Origin: Nannocystis bainbridge
Lineage (GTDB): Bacteria > Myxococcota_A > Polyangia > Nannocystales > Nannocystaceae
Direction: 5' to 3'
NCBI RefSeq assembly: GCF_028368995.1
Contig: NZ_JAQNDL010000003.1
Location: 1,920,001-1,984,000, forward strand
DNA: 64,000 nucleotides
The notes beneath the pieces are model-generated. The model made no database searches. It was not told the DNA's origin and was given only the letters and a program-made list of their open reading frames with translations. A program made the translations under genes and the position numbers. Shown here in pieces: positions 9,310 to 61,853 of the stretch. Every line of letters starts with the position of its first letter. Positions within the stretch are counted from its first letter, which is position 1.

Positions 9310-9501
9310 ATGCCGACGGCGCTCATGACCGTCGAGGAGCTCGCTCTACTGCTCAACACGAGCAAAGGGGCTGTCTATGCCCGGCTCTCGCGTGCAGGGA
9401 TCCCCGGTGCCGTACGGCTCGGCCGGACCCTTCGCTTTGACCCCCGGATCATTGCACAATGGCTCTCGGCGAAAAGTGCGAGCGCGGGAGGTCACTTATG
9501 A
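9310..9501 (+). CDS. Excisionase / HTH_17 DNA-binding protein
   Basis: LMTVEELALLLNTSKGAVY...GAVRLGRTLRF; ATGA overlap with the integrase. Confidence 0.85.
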   Translation: MPTALMTVEELALLLNTSKGAVYARLSRAGIPGAVRLGRTLRFDPRIIAQWLSAKSASAGGHL

Positions 9502-10583
9502 TCACGCTGCGCCCGTGGAAGGGATCGAAGAATGAATTTGAAGTTGACGTTCGCGTCGAGAACGCAGTGGGGCGCAAGCTCCGCCAACGAGTCAAGGCAC
9601 CGGTCACCGGCAGGTCCGCTGCCGAGCGGTGGGCCAAGGCGCTCGAGCAGGAGCTCCTCGCTCAACTCCTCGCGCCCGAGCCCGAGCCCGAGAAGCCCCC
9701 GCCACCGACGTTCGAGGAGTTCGCCAAGACCTTCCTCGACCTGTGCCTGGCCGACCGGCTCGGGACCAACACATTGATCAACTACGACGTCCATCTGCGC
9801 CTGTACCTGCTCCCGGTGCTGGCTCGGCGGCGGCTCGACGAGGTGACGCCCAAGGACATCACCGCGATCAAGAAGTCGCTCGTCAGCAAGTCGCACAACA
9901 CGATGTGCGAGGTGCTCAAAACCCTCCGTCGGGTGTTCAACCGGGCCATCGCCGAGAACGAGATCAAGAGCGCGCCGGTGGACTTCGAGATTCCCCGTCG
10001 GAAGCGCAAGCCCGCGATCGCCTACGACGACCAGGAGCAGGTGGCGCTGCTCGCCGCGGCCCAAGCGATGGGGCCGATGTTCGTCGTCGCCGTCCTGCTC
10101 GGCCTCGACGGCGGTCTCCGGCGCGGAGAGATTCTCGCGCTCAAGTGGACGGACGTCGATCTCAAGCGAGGGCTGATGACGATCCGCCACAACCTCGTGC
10201 GGGACAAGGTCGACCTCCCCAAGGGCAGGACCGAGGACGAGGTCGGCCTGACGACGCGCCTCGCCGCCACGCTGCGCGGCTTTTCGGCGACCGGCCCGTT
10301 CGTGCTCGACAACCACGGGAGTCACTTCCAGGAGCATCACATCAAGTCCTGGATGCGGGCGCTGGTGAAGCGCGCGGGCTTGCCCTGGCGCGGCACCCAC
10401 GTCCTCCGCAAGTCGTGCGGCACGCGGATCGCCGAGGGCGGTGGCGGGGTGGCGGCTGTCGCCAGCCACCTCCGCCACAAGGATCTGCAGACCGCGAGCG
10501 ACTACGTCGATCGTCGCCGCGGCAGCGCTGGCGCGATCCACGCCTTGGAGACGTCGGGGAGACGCACTTCCGAGCACTCGTAA
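9498..10583 (+). CDS. Tyrosine recombinase (phage integrase family)
   Basis: Catalytic residues R (GLRRGE), K (LPKGR), HxxR (HVLRK), H (LRHKD), Y (SDYV). Confidence 0.95.
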   Translation: MITLRPWKGSKNEFEVDVRVENAVGRKLRQRVKAPVTGRSAAERWAKALEQELLAQLLAPEPEPEKPPPPTFEEFAKTFLDLCLADRLGTNTLINYDVHLRLYLLPVLARRRLDEVTPKDITAIKKSLVSKSHNTMCEVLKTLRRVFNRAIAENEIKSAPVDFEIPRRKRKPAIAYDDQEQVALLAAAQAMGPMFVVAVLLGLDGGLRRGEILALKWTDVDLKRGLMTIRHNLVRDKVDLPKGRTEDEVGLTTRLAATLRGFSATGPFVLDNHGSHFQEHHIKSWMRALVKRAGLPWRGTHVLRKSCGTRIAEGGGGVAAVASHLRHKDLQTASDYVDRRRGSAGAIHALETSGRRTSEHS

Positions 10584-27416: not shown

Positions 27417-30227
<2,811 letters not shown>

Positions 30228-51760: not shown

Positions 51761-52102
51761 AGCTCATTCGTGGGTGGTGCGATACGACCTCGAGGCGCAC
51801 CGCGGAAACGACACCCTCTCGCATCAAAAACGGCGCGCGATGTCGCGGCGCCGGCGTGGTCGCGATCACCGTGGAATGGGCATCACGGGCTCGCAAGGGC
51901 CGTTCTGCGAGCATAACACCGATATTGATAGGTTCTTGAGGTCAGGTCTCGAAGTCCTGATACCCACTTGATCATCGGTGCCCTTAGTCTTGAAGGCGTC
52001 GAGTTCGCCGTCGGCCGATGATTTTTCGGTCGGCATCCAGTCCCGACCGCGTCATCGCAATTGTGGGCCGGACCACCCTCTCTTTCAAGGAAATGCTGCG
52101 CC

Positions 52103-53434
<1,332 letters not shown>

Positions 53435-53668
53435 TTGGGGCCCGCGGCCGGTGAGCGAGCCGCGCAGGCGACCGCTTGCGACTCGGAACATTGATTCGGG
53501 CGGAGGCCCGCCGCGCCGTCGCCGATGCAGGGCGGCGCGCCGCGTCGGCCCGGGTGCCCGGACCCCCTGGCCCGCGGCCCCGAGTCTGCGGCACGATCGG
53601 TCGACTTCGCGTATTCCTGAACTGCGCCGCCGCTCGCGTCCGGCCCCGGCGTCCTTCTCCGAACACTC

Positions 53669-55699
53669 GTGACCACCCGCAACCAACCCCCCGCGCGCCG
53701 CCCCGTCGTCCGCCCGACGCTGCTCGACGCGTTGCGCGAGCTCGACCCACGAGAGGTCGTGCGCCGCCCGCTGCTGCTCGGCGTCGGCCTGGCGGCGGCG
53801 CTGACGACGATGCTGGCGCTGCTCCGCCCCGACGCGTTCACGGTGGCGACGGCCGCGTGGATCTGGGTGATGGGGGCGGTGATGGCGGTCGCCGGCGTGC
53901 TCGTACGAATGGCGGCGAACACCCTGGTGATTCGCCTGCAGCACGACGGCGACCTGATGGCGCGGCGGCTGCGAGAGCTGCGGCGCGACGCGCAGGCCGA
54001 GGTGATCCCGGCGTCGCGGCTGCGCCGCGGCGATCTGGTGCACGTGCCCGCGGGCGACAACATCCCCGCCGACGGCGTGGTGGTGGCCGGCAGCGCGGTC
54101 ATTCGCAGCACCCTGAGCGGGCGCTCGGTGCCGCTGGTGCGCGAGAGCGGGGCCGACCGGCGCGCGCTGGTGGCCGGCTCGGCGGTGCTGAGCGGGTGGC
54201 TGATCGTCGACGTGTGGAGCAACCCGGGCGAGGACTTTCGTCAGCGACTGCTGGCGCTGGCCGAGCGGGCCCGATTGGTCGCGCGTCAGGAGCCGCAGGG
54301 CCTGGCGGTGCTGCTGCTGGCGCTGACGGCCACGGGCCTGGCCGCCGGCGCGGCGCTGCAGCCGTGGGCGGCGCTGCTGCTCGCGGGCGACCCGGCGCCG
54401 CTGGTCAACCTCCTGGCGCTGCTGGCCTGCGCGGTGCCGGCGAGCTTCGCCGGGCTGCAGTCGGCGCTCGACGTGGCGGGCTTCCGCCGGCTGCTGCGCA
54501 GCAACGTGGTGACCGGCTCGGCCGCGGTGGTGCGCGCGCTGGGCCAGGTCGACGTGCTCCTGCTCGAGCGCGCGAGCGTGGCGGTCCGCGGCAATTGCGA
54601 GGCCGACGAGCTGATCCCGATGCCGGGGGTCGCGATCGAGGAGCTGGCCGGCGTGGCGTTCCTGGCCAGCCTGGCCGACGAGACGCCCGAGGGCCGCAGC
54701 ATCGTCGCGCTGGCCGAGCGCCGCTACGGGCTGGTGCCGTCGGGCCTGCAGCAGGCGCGCTTCCTGGCGGGCACGGGCCCGGGGCGGCTGACCGGCGTCG
54801 ACCTGCCGGGCCGTCACCTGCGCAAGGGCGACGCCGACGCGATCCGCCAGTTCGTGCGCGAGCACAGCAGCGTCGAGCCGCCGGACGAGTTCCGCGCCGC
54901 GGTGCAGGCGGTCGCCGGCGACGGCGGCGTGGCGATCGGCGTGGCCGACGGACCGCGCATGCTCGGGGTGGTGCGGCTGCGCAGCCGCATGCGCGAGGCG
55001 CTGGCGCGGCTGCGACGCGCCGGGGTGTTCACGGTGATGGCGACGGCCGACACGCCGGCGGCCGCGGCGACGCTGGCGGCCGAGGCGGGGGTCGACGATT
55101 TCCTGGCCGAGGCGACGCCGGAGGCCAAGCTGGCGCTGATCCGCCGCCACCAGGCCGCGGGCCGCAAGGTCGCGATGGTCGGCGACGGCAACCATGACGG
55201 CCCGGCGATGGCCCAGGCCGACGTGGCGGTGGCGACCAACGCCGGGCCGCTGGCGGCGCGCGAGGCCGGCGGCCTGGTCGACCTCGACGGCGACCCGACC
55301 AAGCTGATCGAGGCCGTCGAGCTCGGCCGCGACCAGCGCGCCATCGGCCGCATGCTCGCCGCCTGGTGCCTGGCCAGCGACCTCGCGCTGGCGCTGGTGC
55401 TGGTGCCGCTCGTGATCTCCGAGGCGATGGTCCGCGGCGCCGATCAAATATCTCTCGGGACATGTCCCGAAGGACTCTCGCGGCTCGACCCGCTGGCGCT
55501 GCACTCGCCGCGCAGCGCGGTGCTGGCCGGGCTCGTGGTCCACACCCTCACCCTGGCCGCCGTGGCGCCGCTGGCGCTGCGCTGGCGGGGCCCCGCGCGC
55601 AGTCGCCTGGGCGCCGCCATCATCGGCGTCGTGTTCACCCTGGCGGCCGTCAAGTCGCTCGATCTGTTGCTGTTCGCCGCCTTCGCGCCAGACCTATGA
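53669..55699 (+). CDS. kdpB: KdpB-like P-type ATPase homologue with degenerate catalytic motifs
   Basis: KdpB hallmarks SLADETPEGRSIV, GVDDFLAEATPEAKL, DPTKLIE; DKTGT replaced by ERASV and TGES by SGRS. Confidence 0.85.
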   Translation: MTTRNQPPARRPVVRPTLLDALRELDPREVVRRPLLLGVGLAAALTTMLALLRPDAFTVATAAWIWVMGAVMAVAGVLVRMAANTLVIRLQHDGDLMARRLRELRRDAQAEVIPASRLRRGDLVHVPAGDNIPADGVVVAGSAVIRSTLSGRSVPLVRESGADRRALVAGSAVLSGWLIVDVWSNPGEDFRQRLLALAERARLVARQEPQGLAVLLLALTATGLAAGAALQPWAALLLAGDPAPLVNLLALLACAVPASFAGLQSALDVAGFRRLLRSNVVTGSAAVVRALGQVDVLLLERASVAVRGNCEADELIPMPGVAIEELAGVAFLASLADETPEGRSIVALAERRYGLVPSGLQQARFLAGTGPGRLTGVDLPGRHLRKGDADAIRQFVREHSSVEPPDEFRAAVQAVAGDGGVAIGVADGPRMLGVVRLRSRMREALARLRRAGVFTVMATADTPAAAATLAAEAGVDDFLAEATPEAKLALIRRHQAAGRKVAMVGDGNHDGPAMAQADVAVATNAGPLAAREAGGLVDLDGDPTKLIEAVELGRDQRAIGRMLAAWCLASDLALALVLVPLVISEAMVRGADQISLGTCPEGLSRLDPLALHSPRSAVLAGLVVHTLTLAAVAPLALRWRGPARSRLGAAIIGVVFTLAAVKSLDLLLFAAFAPDL

Positions 55700-58440
55700 G
55701 CCTGATCCACCCTATCGAGGAGAGGAGCGTCGCCGACCCGCGGCGCGGGCGGATGACGCTGTATTTCGGGGCGGCGCCCGGGGTCGGCAAGACCTACGCC
55801 ATGCTCGAGGCGGCCCAGCGGCTGCGTCGGCAGGGCGTCGACGTGATCGTCGGCGCGGTCGACACCCACGGGCGGCCCGAGGTCGCCGACCTGCTGGTCG
55901 GGCTCGAGCGCCTGCCGTCGCGCACCGTCGAGACCCGCGGCAAGGTCATCGAGGAGTTCCACCTCGACGCCGCGCTGGTGCGCCGGCCGAGCCTCGTCGT
56001 CGTCGACGACCTCGGGCACGTCAACGCCGCCGGCTCGCGCCACAACCAGCGCTGGCACGACGTCATCGACCTGCTGGCCGCCGGCGTCGACGTGATGTCG
56101 ACCCTGTGCGTGCAGCAGCTCGAGAGCCAGCACGACGTGGTCCAGCAGATCACCTCGATGCGGGTCCGCGACCCGGTGCCCGACGCGATGTTCGAGCGCG
56201 CCGACCACGTCGAGTTCATCGACCCGCCGGCCAAGGAGGTGCTGACGCGCCTGCAGGACGGCAAGGTCAACATCCCCGAGCAGGACGCCCGCGCGGCCGC
56301 GGCGATGTACCGCAAGAACAGCCTGCTGGCGCTGCGCGAGCTGGCGCTGCGGCGCATGTCGCAACGGACAGGTCGAGAGAACCTGATCTACCGCAGCGCG
56401 CCGCGGCTCGGCGCGGGGCCGACTTCCGAGCGCATCCTCGTGTGCGTCGACCCGAGCTCCCTGGGGCCGCGGCTGATCCGCGCCGCCTTCCGCATGGCCA
56501 CCGGGCTGCGCGCCGAGTGGTTGGCGCTGTACGTCGAGACCCCGCGGCTGGCGCTGGCCGGCGAGTCGGCGCGGGCCCAGGTCGGCGAGACCTTGCGCCT
56601 CGCCGAGCAGCTCGGGGCCGAGGTCGTCCACATCAGCGGCGCCCGCATCGACCGCGAGATCCTCGGCTTCGCCCGGGCCCGCGGCGCCACCCGCCTCATC
56701 ATCGGCAAGCCGCTGCAGCACCGCTGGCGCGACATCCTGCGCGGCTCGCTGGTCGACGCGCTGGTGCGCGGCTCGGGCGACCTCGACGTCCACGTGATCG
56801 CCGGCGACATCGCCCCGCACGAGGTGACGCCGGTGCCCGCCCTGCGCTCGCCGATCCGCATCGCCGCCTACTTCTGGGCCGCGCTGACGGTGGCCACCAT
56901 CGCCGCGACGCGGCTGCTGCACCTGCCGCTGTTCTACGTGATCGTGCTGCTGCTGGTCGGCATCGCCCTGGTCGGCTCGCGGCTCGGTCGCGGCCCGGCG
57001 CTCGGGGCGGCGCTGCTCAGCATCCTTGCGGTCGAGACTTCGCTGCGGCTCGACCTCGACCTGGACCCCATCGACGACCTGCAGCGGGCGGCGATCTACC
57101 TCGGCATGCTGGTGCTGGCGCTGTGGGTCTCGGGCCTGACCGAGCTCAGCCGCCGCCAGGCCGAGGCGGCCCGCGTCGACGAGCGGCGGCTGACGGCGCT
57201 GTACCTGCTGAGCCGCGAGCTGTCGCAGCTGCGCAGCGAGGTCGACATCGCCGAGTGCGCGATCCGCCACGTCAAAAAGACCATGTCCGCGCGGACCGTC
57301 ATCCTCCTGCACGGGCACGACGGCGAGCTCGCGCCGGTGGCGGGGACTGACGTCGAGCTGACGACCGACGCGCGCGAGGAGGGCGTGGCCCGCTGGGCCT
57401 TCGAGCACGGGCCGGCCGGGCGCGGGACCGAGACGCTGAAGGCCGCGCAGGCGCTGTACCTGCCGCTGACCGCCGCCGGGCGCACGATCGGCGTGCTCGG
57501 GGTCGCCCCCGACGACCCCGACAAGCTGGCCAGCCCGGCCGAGCGCCAGCTTCTCGACGCCATGACCGGGCCGGTCGCCCTCGCGCTGCAGCGGGTCCGC
57601 CTGGCCGAGGAGGCCCAGGTCGCCGAGGTCCGCGCGCGCGAGGAGGAGCTGCGCGGCTCGCTGCTTTCGTCGGTCAGCCACGACCTGCGCACGCCGCTGG
57701 CGTCGATCACCGGGGCCGCCAGCGCGATGCTCGACAGCGGCGACGCGATCGCCTTCGAGACTCGCCGCGACCTGCTGCAGACCATCTATGAGGAGGCCGA
57801 GCGGCTCGGGCGGCTGGTCGGCAACCTGCTCGACATGACCCGGCTCGAGGCCGGCTCGGTCGCGCTGCGGACCGACTGGGTCGCGCTCGAGGACCCGATC
57901 GGCTCGGCCCTGGCCCGGCTCGACCGCCGCCTGGCCGGGCGCGAGGTCCAGGTCACGCTGCAGCCCGATCTGCCGCTGCTGGCGCTCGACGAGGTGCTGT
58001 TCGAGCAGCTGATCCTGAACCTGCTGGAGAACGCCTGCAAGCACACCCCGGCGGGCAGCCCGATGCGGTTGGTGGCGCGGGTGCAGGCCGGGCGGGTGAT
58101 GGTCGAGGTGGCGGACCGCGGCCCGGGGCTGCCGGCCGGCGAGGAGGAGACGATCTTCGAGAAGTTCGTGCGCGGCAGCAAGGCCAAGACCCAGGGGTTC
58201 GGGCTCGGGCTGGCGATCTGCCGGGCGATCGCCGCGGCCCACGGCGGTGAAATCACGGCGGAGAACCGGGCGGGCGGCGGGGCCGTGTTCCGGATCAGCC
58301 TGCCGATCGGCGCCGGCCCGCCGGAACCCGCCCCCGACACCTCGCTCGCGTCGATGAGCGGCCCCTCGGGCATGCTACACAACACGGCGAAGATCCTGCT
58401 GCAGCAGGCGTCGGGCCTGGAGGCGGAGACGACGACATGA
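55696..58440 (+). CDS. kdpD: Sensor histidine kinase KdpD
   Basis: GAAPGVGKTYAML, Usp domain, TM bundle, GAF, SVSHDLRTPL. Confidence 0.96.
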   Translation: MSLIHPIEERSVADPRRGRMTLYFGAAPGVGKTYAMLEAAQRLRRQGVDVIVGAVDTHGRPEVADLLVGLERLPSRTVETRGKVIEEFHLDAALVRRPSLVVVDDLGHVNAAGSRHNQRWHDVIDLLAAGVDVMSTLCVQQLESQHDVVQQITSMRVRDPVPDAMFERADHVEFIDPPAKEVLTRLQDGKVNIPEQDARAAAAMYRKNSLLALRELALRRMSQRTGRENLIYRSAPRLGAGPTSERILVCVDPSSLGPRLIRAAFRMATGLRAEWLALYVETPRLALAGESARAQVGETLRLAEQLGAEVVHISGARIDREILGFARARGATRLIIGKPLQHRWRDILRGSLVDALVRGSGDLDVHVIAGDIAPHEVTPVPALRSPIRIAAYFWAALTVATIAATRLLHLPLFYVIVLLLVGIALVGSRLGRGPALGAALLSILAVETSLRLDLDLDPIDDLQRAAIYLGMLVLALWVSGLTELSRRQAEAARVDERRLTALYLLSRELSQLRSEVDIAECAIRHVKKTMSARTVILLHGHDGELAPVAGTDVELTTDAREEGVARWAFEHGPAGRGTETLKAAQALYLPLTAAGRTIGVLGVAPDDPDKLASPAERQLLDAMTGPVALALQRVRLAEEAQVAEVRAREEELRGSLLSSVSHDLRTPLASITGAASAMLDSGDAIAFETRRDLLQTIYEEAERLGRLVGNLLDMTRLEAGSVALRTDWVALEDPIGSALARLDRRLAGREVQVTLQPDLPLLALDEVLFEQLILNLLENACKHTPAGSPMRLVARVQAGRVMVEVADRGPGLPAGEEETIFEKFVRGSKAKTQGFGLGLAICRAIAAAHGGEITAENRAGGGAVFRISLPIGAGPPEPAPDTSLASMSGPSGMLHNTAKILLQQASGLEAETTT

Positions 58441-59156
58441 GCGAACAGGGGCCATTGGTACTCATCGTCGAGGACGAAGCACCGTTGCGGCGGTTCCTGC
58501 GGGCGGCGCTGGTCGCCCAGAACTACCGCCTGGTCGAGGCCGAGACGGCCGCCGAGGGGCTGCAGCGGGCCACCGAGCACAACCCGGACATCGTCCTGCT
58601 CGACCTCGGCTTGCCCGACGGCGACGGGCTCGACGTCACCTCGCGGCTGCGCGAGTGGACCCGTGTGCCGATCATCGTCCTGTCGGCCCGCGGCCAGGAG
58701 CGCGACAAGGTGCAGGCGCTCGACGCCGGGGCCGACGACTACCTGACCAAGCCGTTCGGCACCAGCGAGCTGCTGGCGCGGATCCGGGTGGCGCTGCGGC
58801 GGGTCGCCGAGCGCACGCCGACCGAGGAGCCGATCGTGTCGCTCGGCGAGGTCACCGTCGACCTGGCGCGCCGGCTGGTCACGCGCGCCGGCAAGCCGGT
58901 CCACCTCACGCCGCACGAGTACAAGCTGCTCACCACCCTGCTCAAGTACGCCGGCAAGGTCGTGACCCACAAGCAGCTGCTCAAAGAAGTCTGGGGCCCG
59001 CAGGCGGTCAGCCAGACGCACTACCTCCGGGTCTACATGGCCCAGCTGCGGCAGAAGCTCGAGGGCGACCCGGCCCGGCCGCGCTACCTGACCACCGAGC
59101 CGGGCGTCGGCTACCGCCTGCGCTCCGAGGACGACATCGCCGGGGGCGCCGCGTGA
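58437..59156 (+). CDS. kdpE: Response regulator KdpE
   Basis: LIVEDE, LLDLGLPDGDG, YLRVYMAQLRQKLE...TEPGVGYR. Confidence 0.96.
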   Translation: MSEQGPLVLIVEDEAPLRRFLRAALVAQNYRLVEAETAAEGLQRATEHNPDIVLLDLGLPDGDGLDVTSRLREWTRVPIIVLSARGQERDKVQALDAGADDYLTKPFGTSELLARIRVALRRVAERTPTEEPIVSLGEVTVDLARRLVTRAGKPVHLTPHEYKLLTTLLKYAGKVVTHKQLLKEVWGPQAVSQTHYLRVYMAQLRQKLEGDPARPRYLTTEPGVGYRLRSEDDIAGGAA

Positions 59157-60028
59157 ACCGCCGGCGCGACCGCCCAGTCGCGCTGCTGGACACCTCGCAG
59201 GCGCTGCCGGCCGTGGCCGACGAGCTGCCGACGCCGCGCCTGCGCCGACTGATGCTGCGAGCCCTGGGGGTGCCGCTGGCGGCGATGTTGCTGCTGTGCG
59301 GGCTGCTCGGCGCCGCGCTGGCGGTCGCCGCCGGGGACGAGGCCGAGGCCGCCCGCGCGCGCACCGTCGTCGCCGAGGCCCACCACGTCCAGCGGCTGGT
59401 GCTCGACCAGGAGGCCGCGCTGCGCGGCTTCGCGATCGGGGGCGAGGATAAATTCTTGCCGCCGCTGCACAGCGGCCGCGCGATGGTCCCACCGGCGCTG
59501 CGCCGCCTGGCCGAGCTGACGGCCGGCGACCGCGCGCAGGAGGCCCGCACCGCCGCGCTGGCGGCCGCCTACGGGCGCTGGGTCGCGGCCACCGGCATGA
59601 CGCCGACAGGCCCGCGCGCCGGCGCACCGGTGCTCCCGGGCGAGCCGTCGCGGCTGGCCGCGCGCGCGGCCCAGCTCGAGGCGGTCCGCCAGCTCGTGCG
59701 CCAATTGGTCGACGCCGAGCACGGGCGCACCGGCGCCGACCAGGCGAGCAGTTGGTCGCTGGCCGCGATCGCGGCCGGGCTGGCGGTCGCCCTGGCGCTC
59801 GTCGGCCTCACGACCTCGGCGCTGCGCCGATCGATCCGCCGCATGGAGGGCGTCTACGCCAGGGCCCTGGTGATGCGCCGCCACAGCGAGGCCAGCGAGC
59901 GCGCCGCCCGACGCTCGGCCGAAGCCCTGGCCGCCGAGGTCGCCGCCCACAGCCGCGAGCTGCAGGCCCGCTTCCGGGCCGCGCGCGACGAGCTCGAGCT
60001 GGCGCGGGCGCCCGCGCGAGCGAGCTGA
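59153..60028 (+). CDS. CHASE3-domain membrane protein with no output domain
   Basis: TM, then LVLDQEAALRGFAIGGEDKFLPP, then TM and a short coiled coil; GTGA overlap with kdpE. Confidence 0.75.
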   Translation: MNRRRDRPVALLDTSQALPAVADELPTPRLRRLMLRALGVPLAAMLLLCGLLGAALAVAAGDEAEAARARTVVAEAHHVQRLVLDQEAALRGFAIGGEDKFLPPLHSGRAMVPPALRRLAELTAGDRAQEARTAALAAAYGRWVAATGMTPTGPRAGAPVLPGEPSRLAARAAQLEAVRQLVRQLVDAEHGRTGADQASSWSLAAIAAGLAVALALVGLTTSALRRSIRRMEGVYARALVMRRHSEASERAARRSAEALAAEVAAHSRELQARFRAARDELELARAPARAS

Positions 60029-60295
60029 CGCCCGCGCCGAGCTGGCGCGAGCGCCCGCGCGAGCGAGCTGACGGCGCTCCGAGCTGGCGCGAGCGAGCTG
60101 ACGGCGCCCCGAGCCGGCGCGAGCGAGATGATGGCGCTCCGAGCTGGCGCGCCCGCCCGCGCGAACGAGCTGACGGCGCTCCGAGCTGGCGCGCCCGCCC
60201 GCGCCAACGAGCTGACGGCGCTCCGAACCGGCGCGAGCGAGCTGACAGCGCTCCGAGCTGGCGCGGGCGTACGCGCAGCGAGCTGACGCCGACCG
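59996..60295. repeat. Tandem array of about 8 units of 30-43 bp derived from the CHASE3 gene's last codons and stop
   Basis: GAGCTGGCGCG...GAGCGAGCTGACGGCGCTCC reiterated. Confidence 0.9.
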
Positions 60296-60380
60296 TTCCC
60301 GCGCCCGCCGGTGCTCGCATTCGCGGCGCCGTCGTCGTCGCGCGCGTCGTGCCCCGCCCGGGCGACCGGCTATCGTGGGC

Positions 60381-61853
60381 ATGGTGACGAACATCCCCTG
60401 GATCATGATCGCGGGCACCGGCACCGACCCGCTGCCCGCCGAGCTCGAGACCGTGGCCCACCAGCTCGGCGTGGCCCTGGCGCGGGCCGACTGCGGCGTC
60501 ATCTCCTGCGGCTGGGCCGGCGTCGACCGTGCGCTCGGGGCCGCGTTCGTCGCCGAGCTGCGCGCCACCCGGCGAGACCCGCGAGACCGCTTCAAGCAGG
60601 TGCTGCAGCGCGGGCGCACCCCGTCGGTCGAGGACGGCGAGTCGATCGACGTCGAGCAGGACGCCGAGGAGTACCTCGTCGCCGTCGACCGGGCCGACGT
60701 CGTGATCCTGCTGGCCGGGCGCGGCGGCACGTACCTCGTGTACAAGCACGCGCGGCGGGCCAACAAGCTCGTGCTGCCGCTGCCGGCCACCGAGGGCGAC
60801 GCGCGGCGGGCCTTCGGCGACATCCGCGACAAGTTCGATCGCGCCGCCAACCTCGGCGTCACCGCGAGCGAGTTCGCCGCCCTCGATCGACCGGCAGGCG
60901 AGGCCGCGGAGGCGGTCCTGCGGCTGATCCGCCAGCACCTCGAGGCGAGGGAGATCCGCGACGGCGACTACCTCAAGGCGGACAGCGTCGTCGGCCGCGA
61001 CAACGAGGCCGCGTTCACGCGATTGGTCCGGGAGATCCAGCGGACCGACATGCTCGGGTTCATCGGCGCCGGTGCGTCGATCCCCGGCGGCTACCCCGAC
61101 TGGGGCACGCTGATCGATCGCATGCGCCACGCGCTGCCGTCCGAGATCGCCCGCACGATGGCGTGGGTGGCCCGCGAGGACGACATGCTCATGCGCGCCG
61201 AGCACTACCGCTCTCTGCTCGGCGAGGACTACGGCCGCTTCATCCGCGAGCAGTTCGACGACGACGCCGGCAGGTGCGGCCCGCTGCACCTCGACCTGGT
61301 CCGCCTGCCGGTCGCGCACGTGCTCACGACCAACTACGACACGCTGCTCGAGCGGGCCCACGCGCAGGCGCACCCGGGCGAGCTGCCGCTGCCGACCGAC
61401 TGGAAGAACGCGTCGGACGTCGAGTCCTTCCTCCGCGCGGCCCGCCGCCGCGGCGAGCGCCGCCGCTACGTGCACGTGCACGGGCTCTACAACGACCCGG
61501 CCCACGTCGTCCTGACCGAGAGCGACTACCAGGAGCGCTACTGCCGGGAGACCGCGAGCGAGGCGCTGCTGTCGGCGCTGTTCACCGCCCACGCGTTCCT
61601 GTTCGTCGGCTTCTCGTTCAGCGACCTCGACGTGATGGGGGTGTTCCGCAACACGATGGCGCGGGTCCGCGTCAGCGAGCCGCTGCACTACGCGTTCATG
61701 GCCCTCGACCCCCGCACGCACGACCCGACGCTGGTCCGCCGCCGCCTGCGGCAGAAGTTCAAGATCGACCCGATCTTTTATATGTACACGCCGGACCACG
61801 CGGGCCTGCGCCAGCTCGTCACGCGCCTGCTGGCGACGACGACACCAGCGTGA
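60381..61853 (+). CDS. SLOG-SIR2 fusion protein (putative NADase defence effector)
   Basis: N-terminal SLOG (IAGTG, LGVALARADCGVISCGWAGVD, VILLAGRGGT, LPLPATEGDA); C-terminal SIR2 (FIGAGAS...PDW, TTNYD, HVHG, LFVGFSFSD). Confidence 0.88.
   Translation: MVTNIPWIMIAGTGTDPLPAELETVAHQLGVALARADCGVISCGWAGVDRALGAAFVAELRATRRDPRDRFKQVLQRGRTPSVEDGESIDVEQDAEEYLVAVDRADVVILLAGRGGTYLVYKHARRANKLVLPLPATEGDARRAFGDIRDKFDRAANLGVTASEFAALDRPAGEAAEAVLRLIRQHLEAREIRDGDYLKADSVVGRDNEAAFTRLVREIQRTDMLGFIGAGASIPGGYPDWGTLIDRMRHALPSEIARTMAWVAREDDMLMRAEHYRSLLGEDYGRFIREQFDDDAGRCGPLHLDLVRLPVAHVLTTNYDTLLERAHAQAHPGELPLPTDWKNASDVESFLRAARRRGERRRYVHVHGLYNDPAHVVLTESDYQERYCRETASEALLSALFTAHAFLFVGFSFSDLDVMGVFRNTMARVRVSEPLHYAFMALDPRTHDPTLVRRRLRQKFKIDPIFYMYTPDHAGLRQLVTRLLATTTPA

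Follow-up and report, generated by a model that had tools for sequence, protein, structure and literature searches.

Introduction

The K+ pump KdpFABC and the KdpDE pair of histidine kinase and response regulator form a textbook bacterial system. Other transporters and their relatives serve histidine kinases as co-sensors, as UhpC does with UhpB and as the 'trigger transporters' DctA and BceAB do with DcuS and BceS. These co-sensors are of the secondary or ABC type, most of them are still active, and to our knowledge none is a P-type ATPase. Pseudoenzymes, or 'prozymes', are duplicated enzymes that lack catalytic residues and are held under selection beside active paralogues. Here we describe a locus of the soil myxobacterium Nannocystis bainbridge in which a homologue of the pump ATPase KdpB has lost the residues needed for P-type catalysis and has been maintained as an intact gene. 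The locus lies in a stretch of 64,000 nucleotides (nt) that we refer to as the window (assembly GCF_028368995.1, contig NZ_JAQNDL010000003.1, positions 1,920,001 to 1,984,000, forward strand). We call the gene kdpB*, and the kdpD-type and kdpE-type genes that follow it kdpD2 and kdpE2.

That KdpD phosphorylates KdpB directly is a recent discovery (PMC11018627). As set out there for E. coli, KdpD modifies Ser162 of KdpB by means of its Walker A motif, the W39/R190 pair and the Walker B residues D109/E110, with E110 activating the serine and E161 of KdpB assisting. In the 5MRW crystal structure and the 'tight' off-cycle states, phospho-Ser162 is paired with K357 and R363. PMC11018627 also describes KdpDs in which the serine kinase is retained and the histidine-kinase half lost. 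A P-type ATPase module attached to a signalling enzyme is known from the P4-ATPase-guanylate cyclase fusions of alveolates, and some of these lineages have other residues in place of the DKTGT Asp and the A-domain Glu yet conserve the fold (PMC13466520).

The protein encoded by kdpB* is like E. coli KdpB (PDB 5MRW, 6HRA, 7ZRH) in length, in its seven transmembrane (TM) helices and A, N and P domains, and in being encoded upstream of kdpD-kdpE, here immediately; unlike E. coli KdpB, its Ser162 network (E161, K357, R363) is rewired. KdpD2 retains the full E. coli-type domain set, the His box, Walker A and R190 of the tandem serine/histidine kinase, and the locus reverses the case described in PMC11018627: here it is the histidine kinase that survives, beside a degenerate serine kinase and a dead pump. 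The alveolate modules are eukaryotic, flippase-type and part of one polypeptide, whereas KdpB* is bacterial, KdpB-type and linked to its partner by the operon only. KdpB* may be compared with UhpC-type co-sensors in that a transporter homologue is encoded with the histidine kinase it is proposed to inform. It may also be compared with prozymes, as an apparently dead paralogue kept beside active copies; modulation of active KdpB is not part of that likeness.

A full-length KdpB homologue that cannot run the P-type cycle

The open reading frame (ORF) of kdpB* occupies 53669-55699 on the plus strand, starts with GTG and runs uninterrupted for 676 codons. Its third codon positions are 0.951 G+C (GC3), in a region where G+C content lies between 66 and 79% (the profiled 46-64 kb part of the window). 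Homology to KdpB extends over the full length. The NCBIfam model TIGR01497 (kdpB) matches residues 13-638 with E=1.3e-131, and a phmmer search of the PDB aligns residues 14-639 with residues 14-638 of E. coli KdpB (6hra_B, E=6e-129), the two proteins being 38-40% identical over the whole chain. The TIGR01497 score of 439.9 bits nevertheless falls below the curated equivalog cut-off of 527.9; two relatives discussed below score 490 (P0012) and 480 (P0014), and a canonical Nannocystis KdpB (P0396) scores 1055. An AlphaFold2 model built from a 76-row alignment (predicted local distance difference test, pLDDT, 82.5; predicted template modelling score 0.79) contains seven predicted TM helices together with the A, N and P domains, and its top Foldseek matches are E. 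coli KdpB chains (template modelling score up to 0.82). A search of the ESM Atlas returned ordinary KdpB clusters only.

Alignments place substitutions at five signature motifs. In the A domain SGRS (54116..54127, residues 150-153) replaces the TGES loop, with E161 changed to Arg and Ser162 kept. The phosphorylation motif DKTGT reads ERASV (54566..54580, residues 300-304), TGDN reads TADT with its Asp kept (55043..55054, residues 459-462), and GDGTND reads GDGNHD with both Asp residues kept (55181..55198, residues 505-510); G472 and N521 of the Mg/phosphate loops are thereby replaced. In TM5, DLAL stands for DVAK (55379..55390), so that D583 is kept and K586 is Leu. None of the features that characterise an active KdpB, namely the phosphorylatable Asp of DKTGT, Glu161 of TGES, the TGDN and GDGTND loops and the D583/K586 pair of TM5, is intact. 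Because the phospho-acceptor Asp, the TGES Glu and the TM5 Lys are gone and the Mg/phosphate loops are altered, KdpB* cannot run the P-type cycle.

Partners for ion transport are also missing. Searches (tblastn) with E. coli KdpA, KdpC and KdpF, the sequences taken from locus L006, gave no match with E<=1e-3, whether in the window or at five orthologous loci of 22 kb each, and Pfam detected no K+ transport family among 30 further ORFs of the window. The locus thus does not encode a KdpFABC complex, for which KdpA, KdpC and KdpF would have to be co-encoded, and without KdpA there is no ion entry path for KdpB*.

An earlier, sequence-only reading of the locus had reported an intact ORF of this length coupled to kdpD by an ATGA overlap, the five motif changes and the absence of adjacent kdpA, kdpC and kdpF. 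All of this is borne out: the kdpD2 start codon lies at 55696, the motifs stand where they had been placed, ERASV to the nucleotide, and the four-gene operon recurs in 6/6 genomes. Its statement that the N domain is kept holds in part. The motif SLADETPEGRSIV and the K395-G396 pair are present, but F377 has become Gly and R317, invariant in the aligned canonical KdpBs, has become Cys. In E. coli KdpB, F377A/K395A is described as a double mutant that abolishes ATP binding (bioRxiv 10.1101/2023.11.09.566405). The proposal that KdpB* serves as a nucleotide sensor is weakened by these two changes in the Nannocystis proteins.

We considered whether Arg161 might act on Glu307 to lock the headpiece in an E2P-like state. 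This idea was dropped; the model matches KdpB in the E1 and E1-P-tight states (template modelling score 0.77-0.82) and E2P at only 0.44-0.48. Two local features of the protein may be recorded here. An insertion of 12 residues after TM5 (~585-597, nt ~55420-55460) occurs in the Nannocystis proteins only, being absent from the two other subclades introduced below and from canonical KdpBs, and model confidence is low there, with pLDDT below 50 at residues 596-599.

The loss is conserved and the gene is under purifying selection

A word-seeded protein search scored 7987 candidates. Among the best 120, thirteen proteins (P0005-P0017) are 56-90% identical to KdpB*, and the next matches are canonical KdpBs at <=44%. 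With the window protein these form a clade of 14 members in three subclades; two of the members are partial (P0010, 489 aa; P0013, 526 aa). DKTGT is found in 0/14: eight members read ERASV, three EKSSV and three DKASV, the last three keeping the Asp-Lys of the phosphorylation site. The TGES site is SGRS in 12/14, with one GGRS and one SGRG. Position 161 is Arg in all 14, as against Glu in 86/86 canonical rows, and Ser162 survives in 13. Ser310 and Val311 are fixed in 14/14, Glu357 and Val363 in 11/11, and K586 is replaced by Leu, or by Val in one subclade.

We compared the 11 full-length clade members with 86 canonical KdpBs, a set biased towards relatives of its search query, and found 59 positions at which canonical KdpBs are >=95% invariant and the clade is fixed for a different residue in >=10/11. 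Among them are the A-domain changes T159S and E161R, T265A and G268A of TM4, the phosphorylation-loop changes G310S and T311V, the N-domain changes R317C, K357E and R363V, the P-domain changes G472A and N521H, and 17 positions in TM5-7. E161R and K357E, one in the A domain and one in the N domain, make up a double charge reversal shared by 11/11 members. D473, K499, D518, D522, D344, E348, K395 and G396 are kept in all 11. The pattern of substitution looks remodelled, not random.

A genome scan found five further loci, all in named Nannocystis species and 87-90% identical. In these and the window, 6/6 genomes, kdpB* is exactly 2031 nt long without internal stop or frameshift, and SGRS, ERASV, TADT, GDGNHD and DLAL are identical. 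An artefact of sequencing or annotation can be rejected, as six independent genomes share the same ORF. A recent, strain-specific loss of kdpA and kdpC can likewise be rejected for the genus, because neither gene was detected at any of the five other loci.

We estimated the ratio of nonsynonymous to synonymous substitution (dN/dS, omega) by the Nei-Gojobori method over the 15 pairs of these six close genomes (dS 0.06-0.27). The whole-gene omega of kdpB* is 0.256 (bootstrap confidence interval, CI, 0.20-0.31). By region it is 0.094 in the A domain (CI 0.03-0.18), 0.138 in N, 0.178 in P2 and 0.28-0.46 in the TM segments, so that constraint on KdpB* is strongest in the cytoplasmic headpiece and weakest in the membrane part. 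The fastest segment is the TM1-2 region, at 0.46. For comparison, omega is 0.18 for kdpD, 0.08 for an upstream sigma factor gene, 0.006 for kdpE and 0.43 for the gene of a CHASE3-domain protein at the end of the operon.

Lost catalytic motifs, purifying selection and conservation across lineages are together the marks of a pseudoenzyme, and all three are seen here. The comparisons support KdpB* as a conserved predicted pseudo-ATPase with no sign of recent decay, as the sequence-only reading had supposed; it had asked whether the loss of DKTGT is shared by orthologues with dN/dS below 1, and it is, no close orthologue having retained the motif. Two individual irregularities were seen, both in N. 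pusilla. P0010, annotated as a 489-aa 'hypothetical protein', is a truncated KdpB*, and at L005:12028-14772 the kdpD frame changes near its 3' end, in this assembly only; each may be an assembly error or a real lesion.

These data bear on two other explanations. One is that KdpB* is a relic with no function as a protein, its frame being kept so that ribosomes or transcription reach kdpD2, by way of the ATGA overlap and of operon polarity. The translational coupling is indeed tight, kdpB* evolves faster (omega ~0.25) than kdpD, kdpE and the sigma gene, and the stem branch of the clade is long and accelerated (0.48 + 0.64 substitutions per site). Coupling, however, would not conserve amino acids, and the A, N and P2 regions show omega values of 0.09-0.18, with CIs well below 1. 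Frameshifts and stops are absent from 6/6 genomes, the ORF is full-length down to 56% identity, the replacement residues are fixed across subclades, and GC3 is 0.95. We regard a relic as quite improbable.

The other explanation is that KdpB* is an enzyme or transporter with altered chemistry, whether with a Glu or a retained Asp as nucleophile, as a phosphatase, as a nucleotide-binding switch or as a KdpA-independent carrier. The three DKASV members, which also have an aromatic residue at position 377, are in keeping with this, as are the eight acidic, Lys and Gly residues kept in 11/11 members and the constraint on the P2 and N domains. Against it stands the replacement of T309, G310, T311, the TGES Glu, G472 and N521, to which the window protein adds Glu for D307, Gly for F377 and Cys for R317. 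The joint loss of several independent essential positions, with no KdpA for ion entry, makes altered chemistry very improbable in our judgement.

Canonical paralogues and a probable origin by duplication

We built trees with FastTree, in which support is SH-like (Shimodaira-Hasegawa) only and the pseudo-ATPase clade has deviant composition and long branches. In the KdpB tree (98 rows) this clade and one further protein, P0125, group together (SH 100) inside a 23-row group (SH 99) that includes N. punicea P0396 and P0401 and Nannocystis sp. P0399, all with intact motifs. The two successive stem branches of the pseudo-clade are long, with 0.48 and 0.64 substitutions per site, where the median tip has 0.05. 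In the KdpD tree (71 rows) the relatives of KdpD2, which carry Asp-Asp in Walker B, and one Asp-Glu sister (P0282) adjoin the KdpD clade of named Nannocystis (SH 98). The same three subclades are recovered in both trees, and two more distant KdpB*/KdpD2 pairs are apparently co-located on contigs of 111711 nt and 5269 nt, judging from equal contig size and source. The KdpB and KdpD trees agree on what would be a single operon duplication.

Canonical copies exist in the same genus. N. punicea encodes two canonical KdpBs (P0396, P0401) and two canonical KdpDs (P0289, P0298) on the 13,228,663-nt chromosome that also carries its copy of the kdpB* locus (L002), and pumping is therefore provided elsewhere. 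The supplement of PMC11018627 includes an entry for 'Nannocystis sp.', a full-length, Walker-positive KdpD whose sequence is not that of the KdpD in the window. The trees and the canonical copies together indicate that the kdpB* locus is an extra copy that arose by operon duplication, and that Nannocystis kept its Kdp pump.

The KdpB P0125 is half degenerate (TGAH, DKAGA, TSDN) and keeps K586, F377 and R317. It is apparently paired, on an 8349-nt contig and again by equal size and source, with the KdpD P0282, whose Walker A and Asp-Glu are intact. It is possible that P0125/P0282 represents an evolutionary intermediate. If the two are neighbours, the pump would have died before the serine kinase.

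Other degenerate KdpB-like proteins were also seen. P0145, P0166, P0178 and P0268 (also P0152, P0156, P0183 and P0198) have motifs such as DKSAI, DKRAI or DKRAV with TGKN or TGQV, and keep K586. Four such representatives form one clade (SH 100); for three of these the score exceeds the kdpB equivalog cut-off, and they would consequently be named as ordinary KdpB. Other lineages may contain dead or altered KdpBs. Within the KdpB* clade itself annotations are inconsistent ('K+-transporting ATPase B chain', 'HAD-IC family P-type ATPase', 'HAD family hydrolase, partial', 'hypothetical protein'), and counts of Kdp pumps made from KdpB or KdpD names are therefore too high in these genomes.

The partner kinase, the regulator and the CHASE3 protein

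All four genes of the operon are joined by 4-nt overlaps. The kdpD2 ATG at 55696 overlaps the kdpB* stop codon (ATGA), kdpD2 and kdpE2 share 58437-58440, and kdpE2 and the CHASE3 gene share 59153-59156, as GTGA in the window and ATGA at the five related loci. Sigma factor, kdpB*, kdpD, kdpE and CHASE3 follow one another in this order in 5/5 of those loci, and so in 6/6 genomes with the window.

KdpD2 (55696..58440, plus strand) has the domains KdpD-N, Usp, DUF4118 TM, GAF, HisKA and HATPase_c by Pfam and is 39% identical to E. coli KdpD over its full length (884 columns). It shows the KdpD architecture and the SHDLR His box, and scores 705.9 with NF007793, below the cut-off of 1123. Its serine-kinase (ASK) module, as defined by the Walker A Lys, the Walker B Asp-Glu and the W39/R190 pair, is incomplete: aligned to E. 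coli KdpD, Walker A and R190 are kept, W39 is Tyr and E110 is Asp, which gives Asp-Asp in place of Asp-Glu at 56005..56010. In an alignment of 121 KdpDs (120 search matches and E. coli), Asp-Asp is present in 8/8 members of the orthologous clade (60-100% identity) and Asp-Glu in 112 of the 113 others, the remaining row having no N-terminus. The Walker A Lys is lost as well in 6/8 clade members (GVGMT or GVGTT). All retain an intact histidine box.

Selection within Nannocystis follows the same division. Omega is 0.33 in the N-terminal domain of KdpD2, 0.12 in Usp, 0.53 in TM, 0.065 in GAF and 0.081 in DHp-CA, and therefore the histidine-kinase pathway is strongly maintained and the serine-kinase module relaxed. 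The highest value falls in the TM (DUF4118) region, residues 373-485. The fast TM regions of KdpD2 and KdpB* may reflect relaxed constraint or co-adapting membrane surfaces. KdpE2 (58437..59156, plus strand), with Response_reg and Trans_reg_C domains by Pfam, is an OmpR-family regulator 59% identical to E. coli KdpE. It scores 312.3 with NF007820, just under the cut-off of 325, and keeps the equivalents of Y191, R193, R200 and T215, the KdpE-specific DNA-contact residues (PMC3264566), which places it with KdpE. Since the histidine-kinase core of KdpD2 and KdpE2 are intact and tightly constrained, the system is in use.

The fourth gene (59153..60028, plus strand, GTG start at 59153) encodes a stand-alone CHASE3 protein of 291 aa (Pfam E=5.4e-16). 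Its translation shows two hydrophobic segments that flank the CHASE3 domain and are followed by a short helical tail, in which, as in the rest of the protein, Pfam detected no output domain. It is present in 5/5 related loci at 66-73% identity. PADLOC gave no match to either this protein or KdpB*.

The coexistence of canonical paralogues raises a further possibility, that KdpB* acts in trans on canonical Kdp, either as a non-pumping brake beside KdpA and KdpC or as a Ser162 sink through which the serine-kinase activity of canonical KdpDs would report K+ status. Canonical KdpB and KdpD with intact motifs are at hand in Nannocystis, Ser162 is kept in 13/14 clade members and lies in the A domain, the most constrained part of KdpB*, D583 and P264 are unchanged, and the full set of seven TM helices is predicted. 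Constraint is lowest, however, in the TM segments expected to face KdpA (omega 0.28-0.46); 24 TM positions that are invariant in canonical KdpBs are substituted, and K586, T265 and G268 differ. Arg replaces E161, a residue that in E. coli supports the phosphorylation of Ser162 (PMC11018627); K357 and R363, which receive the phospho-Ser, are lost; and kdpB* is co-translated with KdpD2 and with no pump. On this evidence we think a trans action unlikely. The suggestion of the sequence-only reading that KdpB* might be a decoy for its own KdpD is weakened, as is a role as substrate of that kinase, by E110D in 8/8 clade kinases, by the loss of the Walker A Lys in relatives and by the absence of K357 and R363.

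A proposed accessory role in KdpD2/KdpE2 signalling

What the locus presents is a pump half that has been disabled, a channel half that has been discarded and a serine-kinase half that has decayed, alongside a dead ATPase and a histidine-kinase pathway that have long been under selection. This suggests that a part of the pump has been recycled as a signalling accessory. The explanation we favour is that KdpB* may be a membrane-anchored, non-catalytic accessory of KdpD2/KdpE2, a co-sensor or scaffold, and we would give it an even chance of being right. The locus would be a third, derived copy of the Nannocystaceae kdp operon, which after duplication would have lost kdpF, kdpA and kdpC. What was left, kdpB*-kdpD2-kdpE2 with the CHASE3 gene added at least in Nannocystis, would form one translationally coupled unit. 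The pump-brake circuit, in which the KdpD serine kinase modifies Ser162 and the phosphoserine docks on K357/R363, would have decayed on both sides, while KdpB* would have been kept as an accessory subunit serving KdpD2 and KdpE2, a histidine kinase and a regulator that are still intact. A further, periplasmic input could come from the CHASE3 protein. Physical contact with KdpD2, the signal that is sensed and the KdpE2 regulon are all inferred.

Several observations weigh against an accessory role. The case for contact between KdpB* and KdpD2 would rest on operon coupling and parallel phylogeny, and since operon linkage was inherited from kdpFABCDE it is no independent evidence of a new partnership. 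The presumed contact partner, the N-terminal domain of KdpD2, is among the less constrained parts of the kinase (omega 0.33), and the loss of its catalytic residues would be expected from simple disuse no less than from a new binding role. The omega values describe six close genomes, gene order was read within Nannocystis only, and the CHASE3 linkage is seen in this one genus, whose synteny is conserved throughout. The data give no support to autoregulation by way of an E. coli-type KdpE box: none was found upstream, and the pattern TTTAYA-N5-TTTAYA has no match with <=2 mismatches in the window, where 0.11 would be expected by chance. When KdpD2 (residues 1-235) was co-folded with the A domain of KdpB* (84-210), the scores were 0.22 and 0.04 against a mark of 0.32, and we use this result neither for nor against binding.

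A more specific form of the accessory role can be imagined. An Arg161-Glu357 contact could hard-wire the link of the A domain to the N domain without phosphorylation, the Arg161/Glu357 pair taking the place of phospho-Ser162 with Lys357/Arg363. KdpB* would then be a sensory or regulatory subunit whose headpiece is fixed by this swap and which gates KdpD2 together with the periplasmic CHASE3 protein. We hold this version only tentatively and consider it doubtful. If it were true, KdpB* would be the first bacterial pseudo-P-type ATPase in signalling, and the locus a natural experiment on KdpB-KdpD contact beyond pump inhibition. More generally, if KdpB* modulates KdpD2, P-type ATPases would join the transporters that have been recycled into sensors, and the locus would offer a transport-independent genetic handle on KdpB-KdpD communication.

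In taxonomic terms kdpB* is narrow in range. It is well supported as an evolutionary observation, and the mechanism is a proposal. The module had been put forward as undescribed, and our literature search, to which most subscription journals were out of reach, found no description of it.

The upstream region and neighbouring genes

Directly upstream of the operon, a 457-aa sigma-70 family protein with regions 2, 3 and 4 is encoded at 52061-53434 (plus strand); it is syntenic in 5/5 related loci and its omega is 0.08. The 234-nt spacer between the two (53435-53668) contains the blocks GGAACATTGAT and CCCCCTGGCCC, which are invariant or nearly so in the alignment of the six genomes. A nearly invariant block of ~44 nt at 53586..53629 (plus strand) is a candidate promoter or operator. 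None of these blocks resembles a sigma-70 consensus or an E. coli-type KdpE box, and a scan of 53300-60500 for sigma-70 consensus sequences and terminators gave no match.

Immediately beyond the CHASE3 gene, downstream, 60375-61853 (plus strand) encodes a 492-aa SIR2_2-domain protein (Pfam E=1.4e-25) that PADLOC matches to ThsA (2.2e-25) and LmuA (1e-19). It is missing from all five orthologous Nannocystis loci, and it is probably a defence-type gene that was inserted in this strain only. Elsewhere in the window, and unrelated to the kdpB* locus, are a phage-type integrase gene (9459-10583, plus strand) and a gene for a 936-aa Ser/Thr protein kinase with TPR repeats (27417-30227, minus strand).

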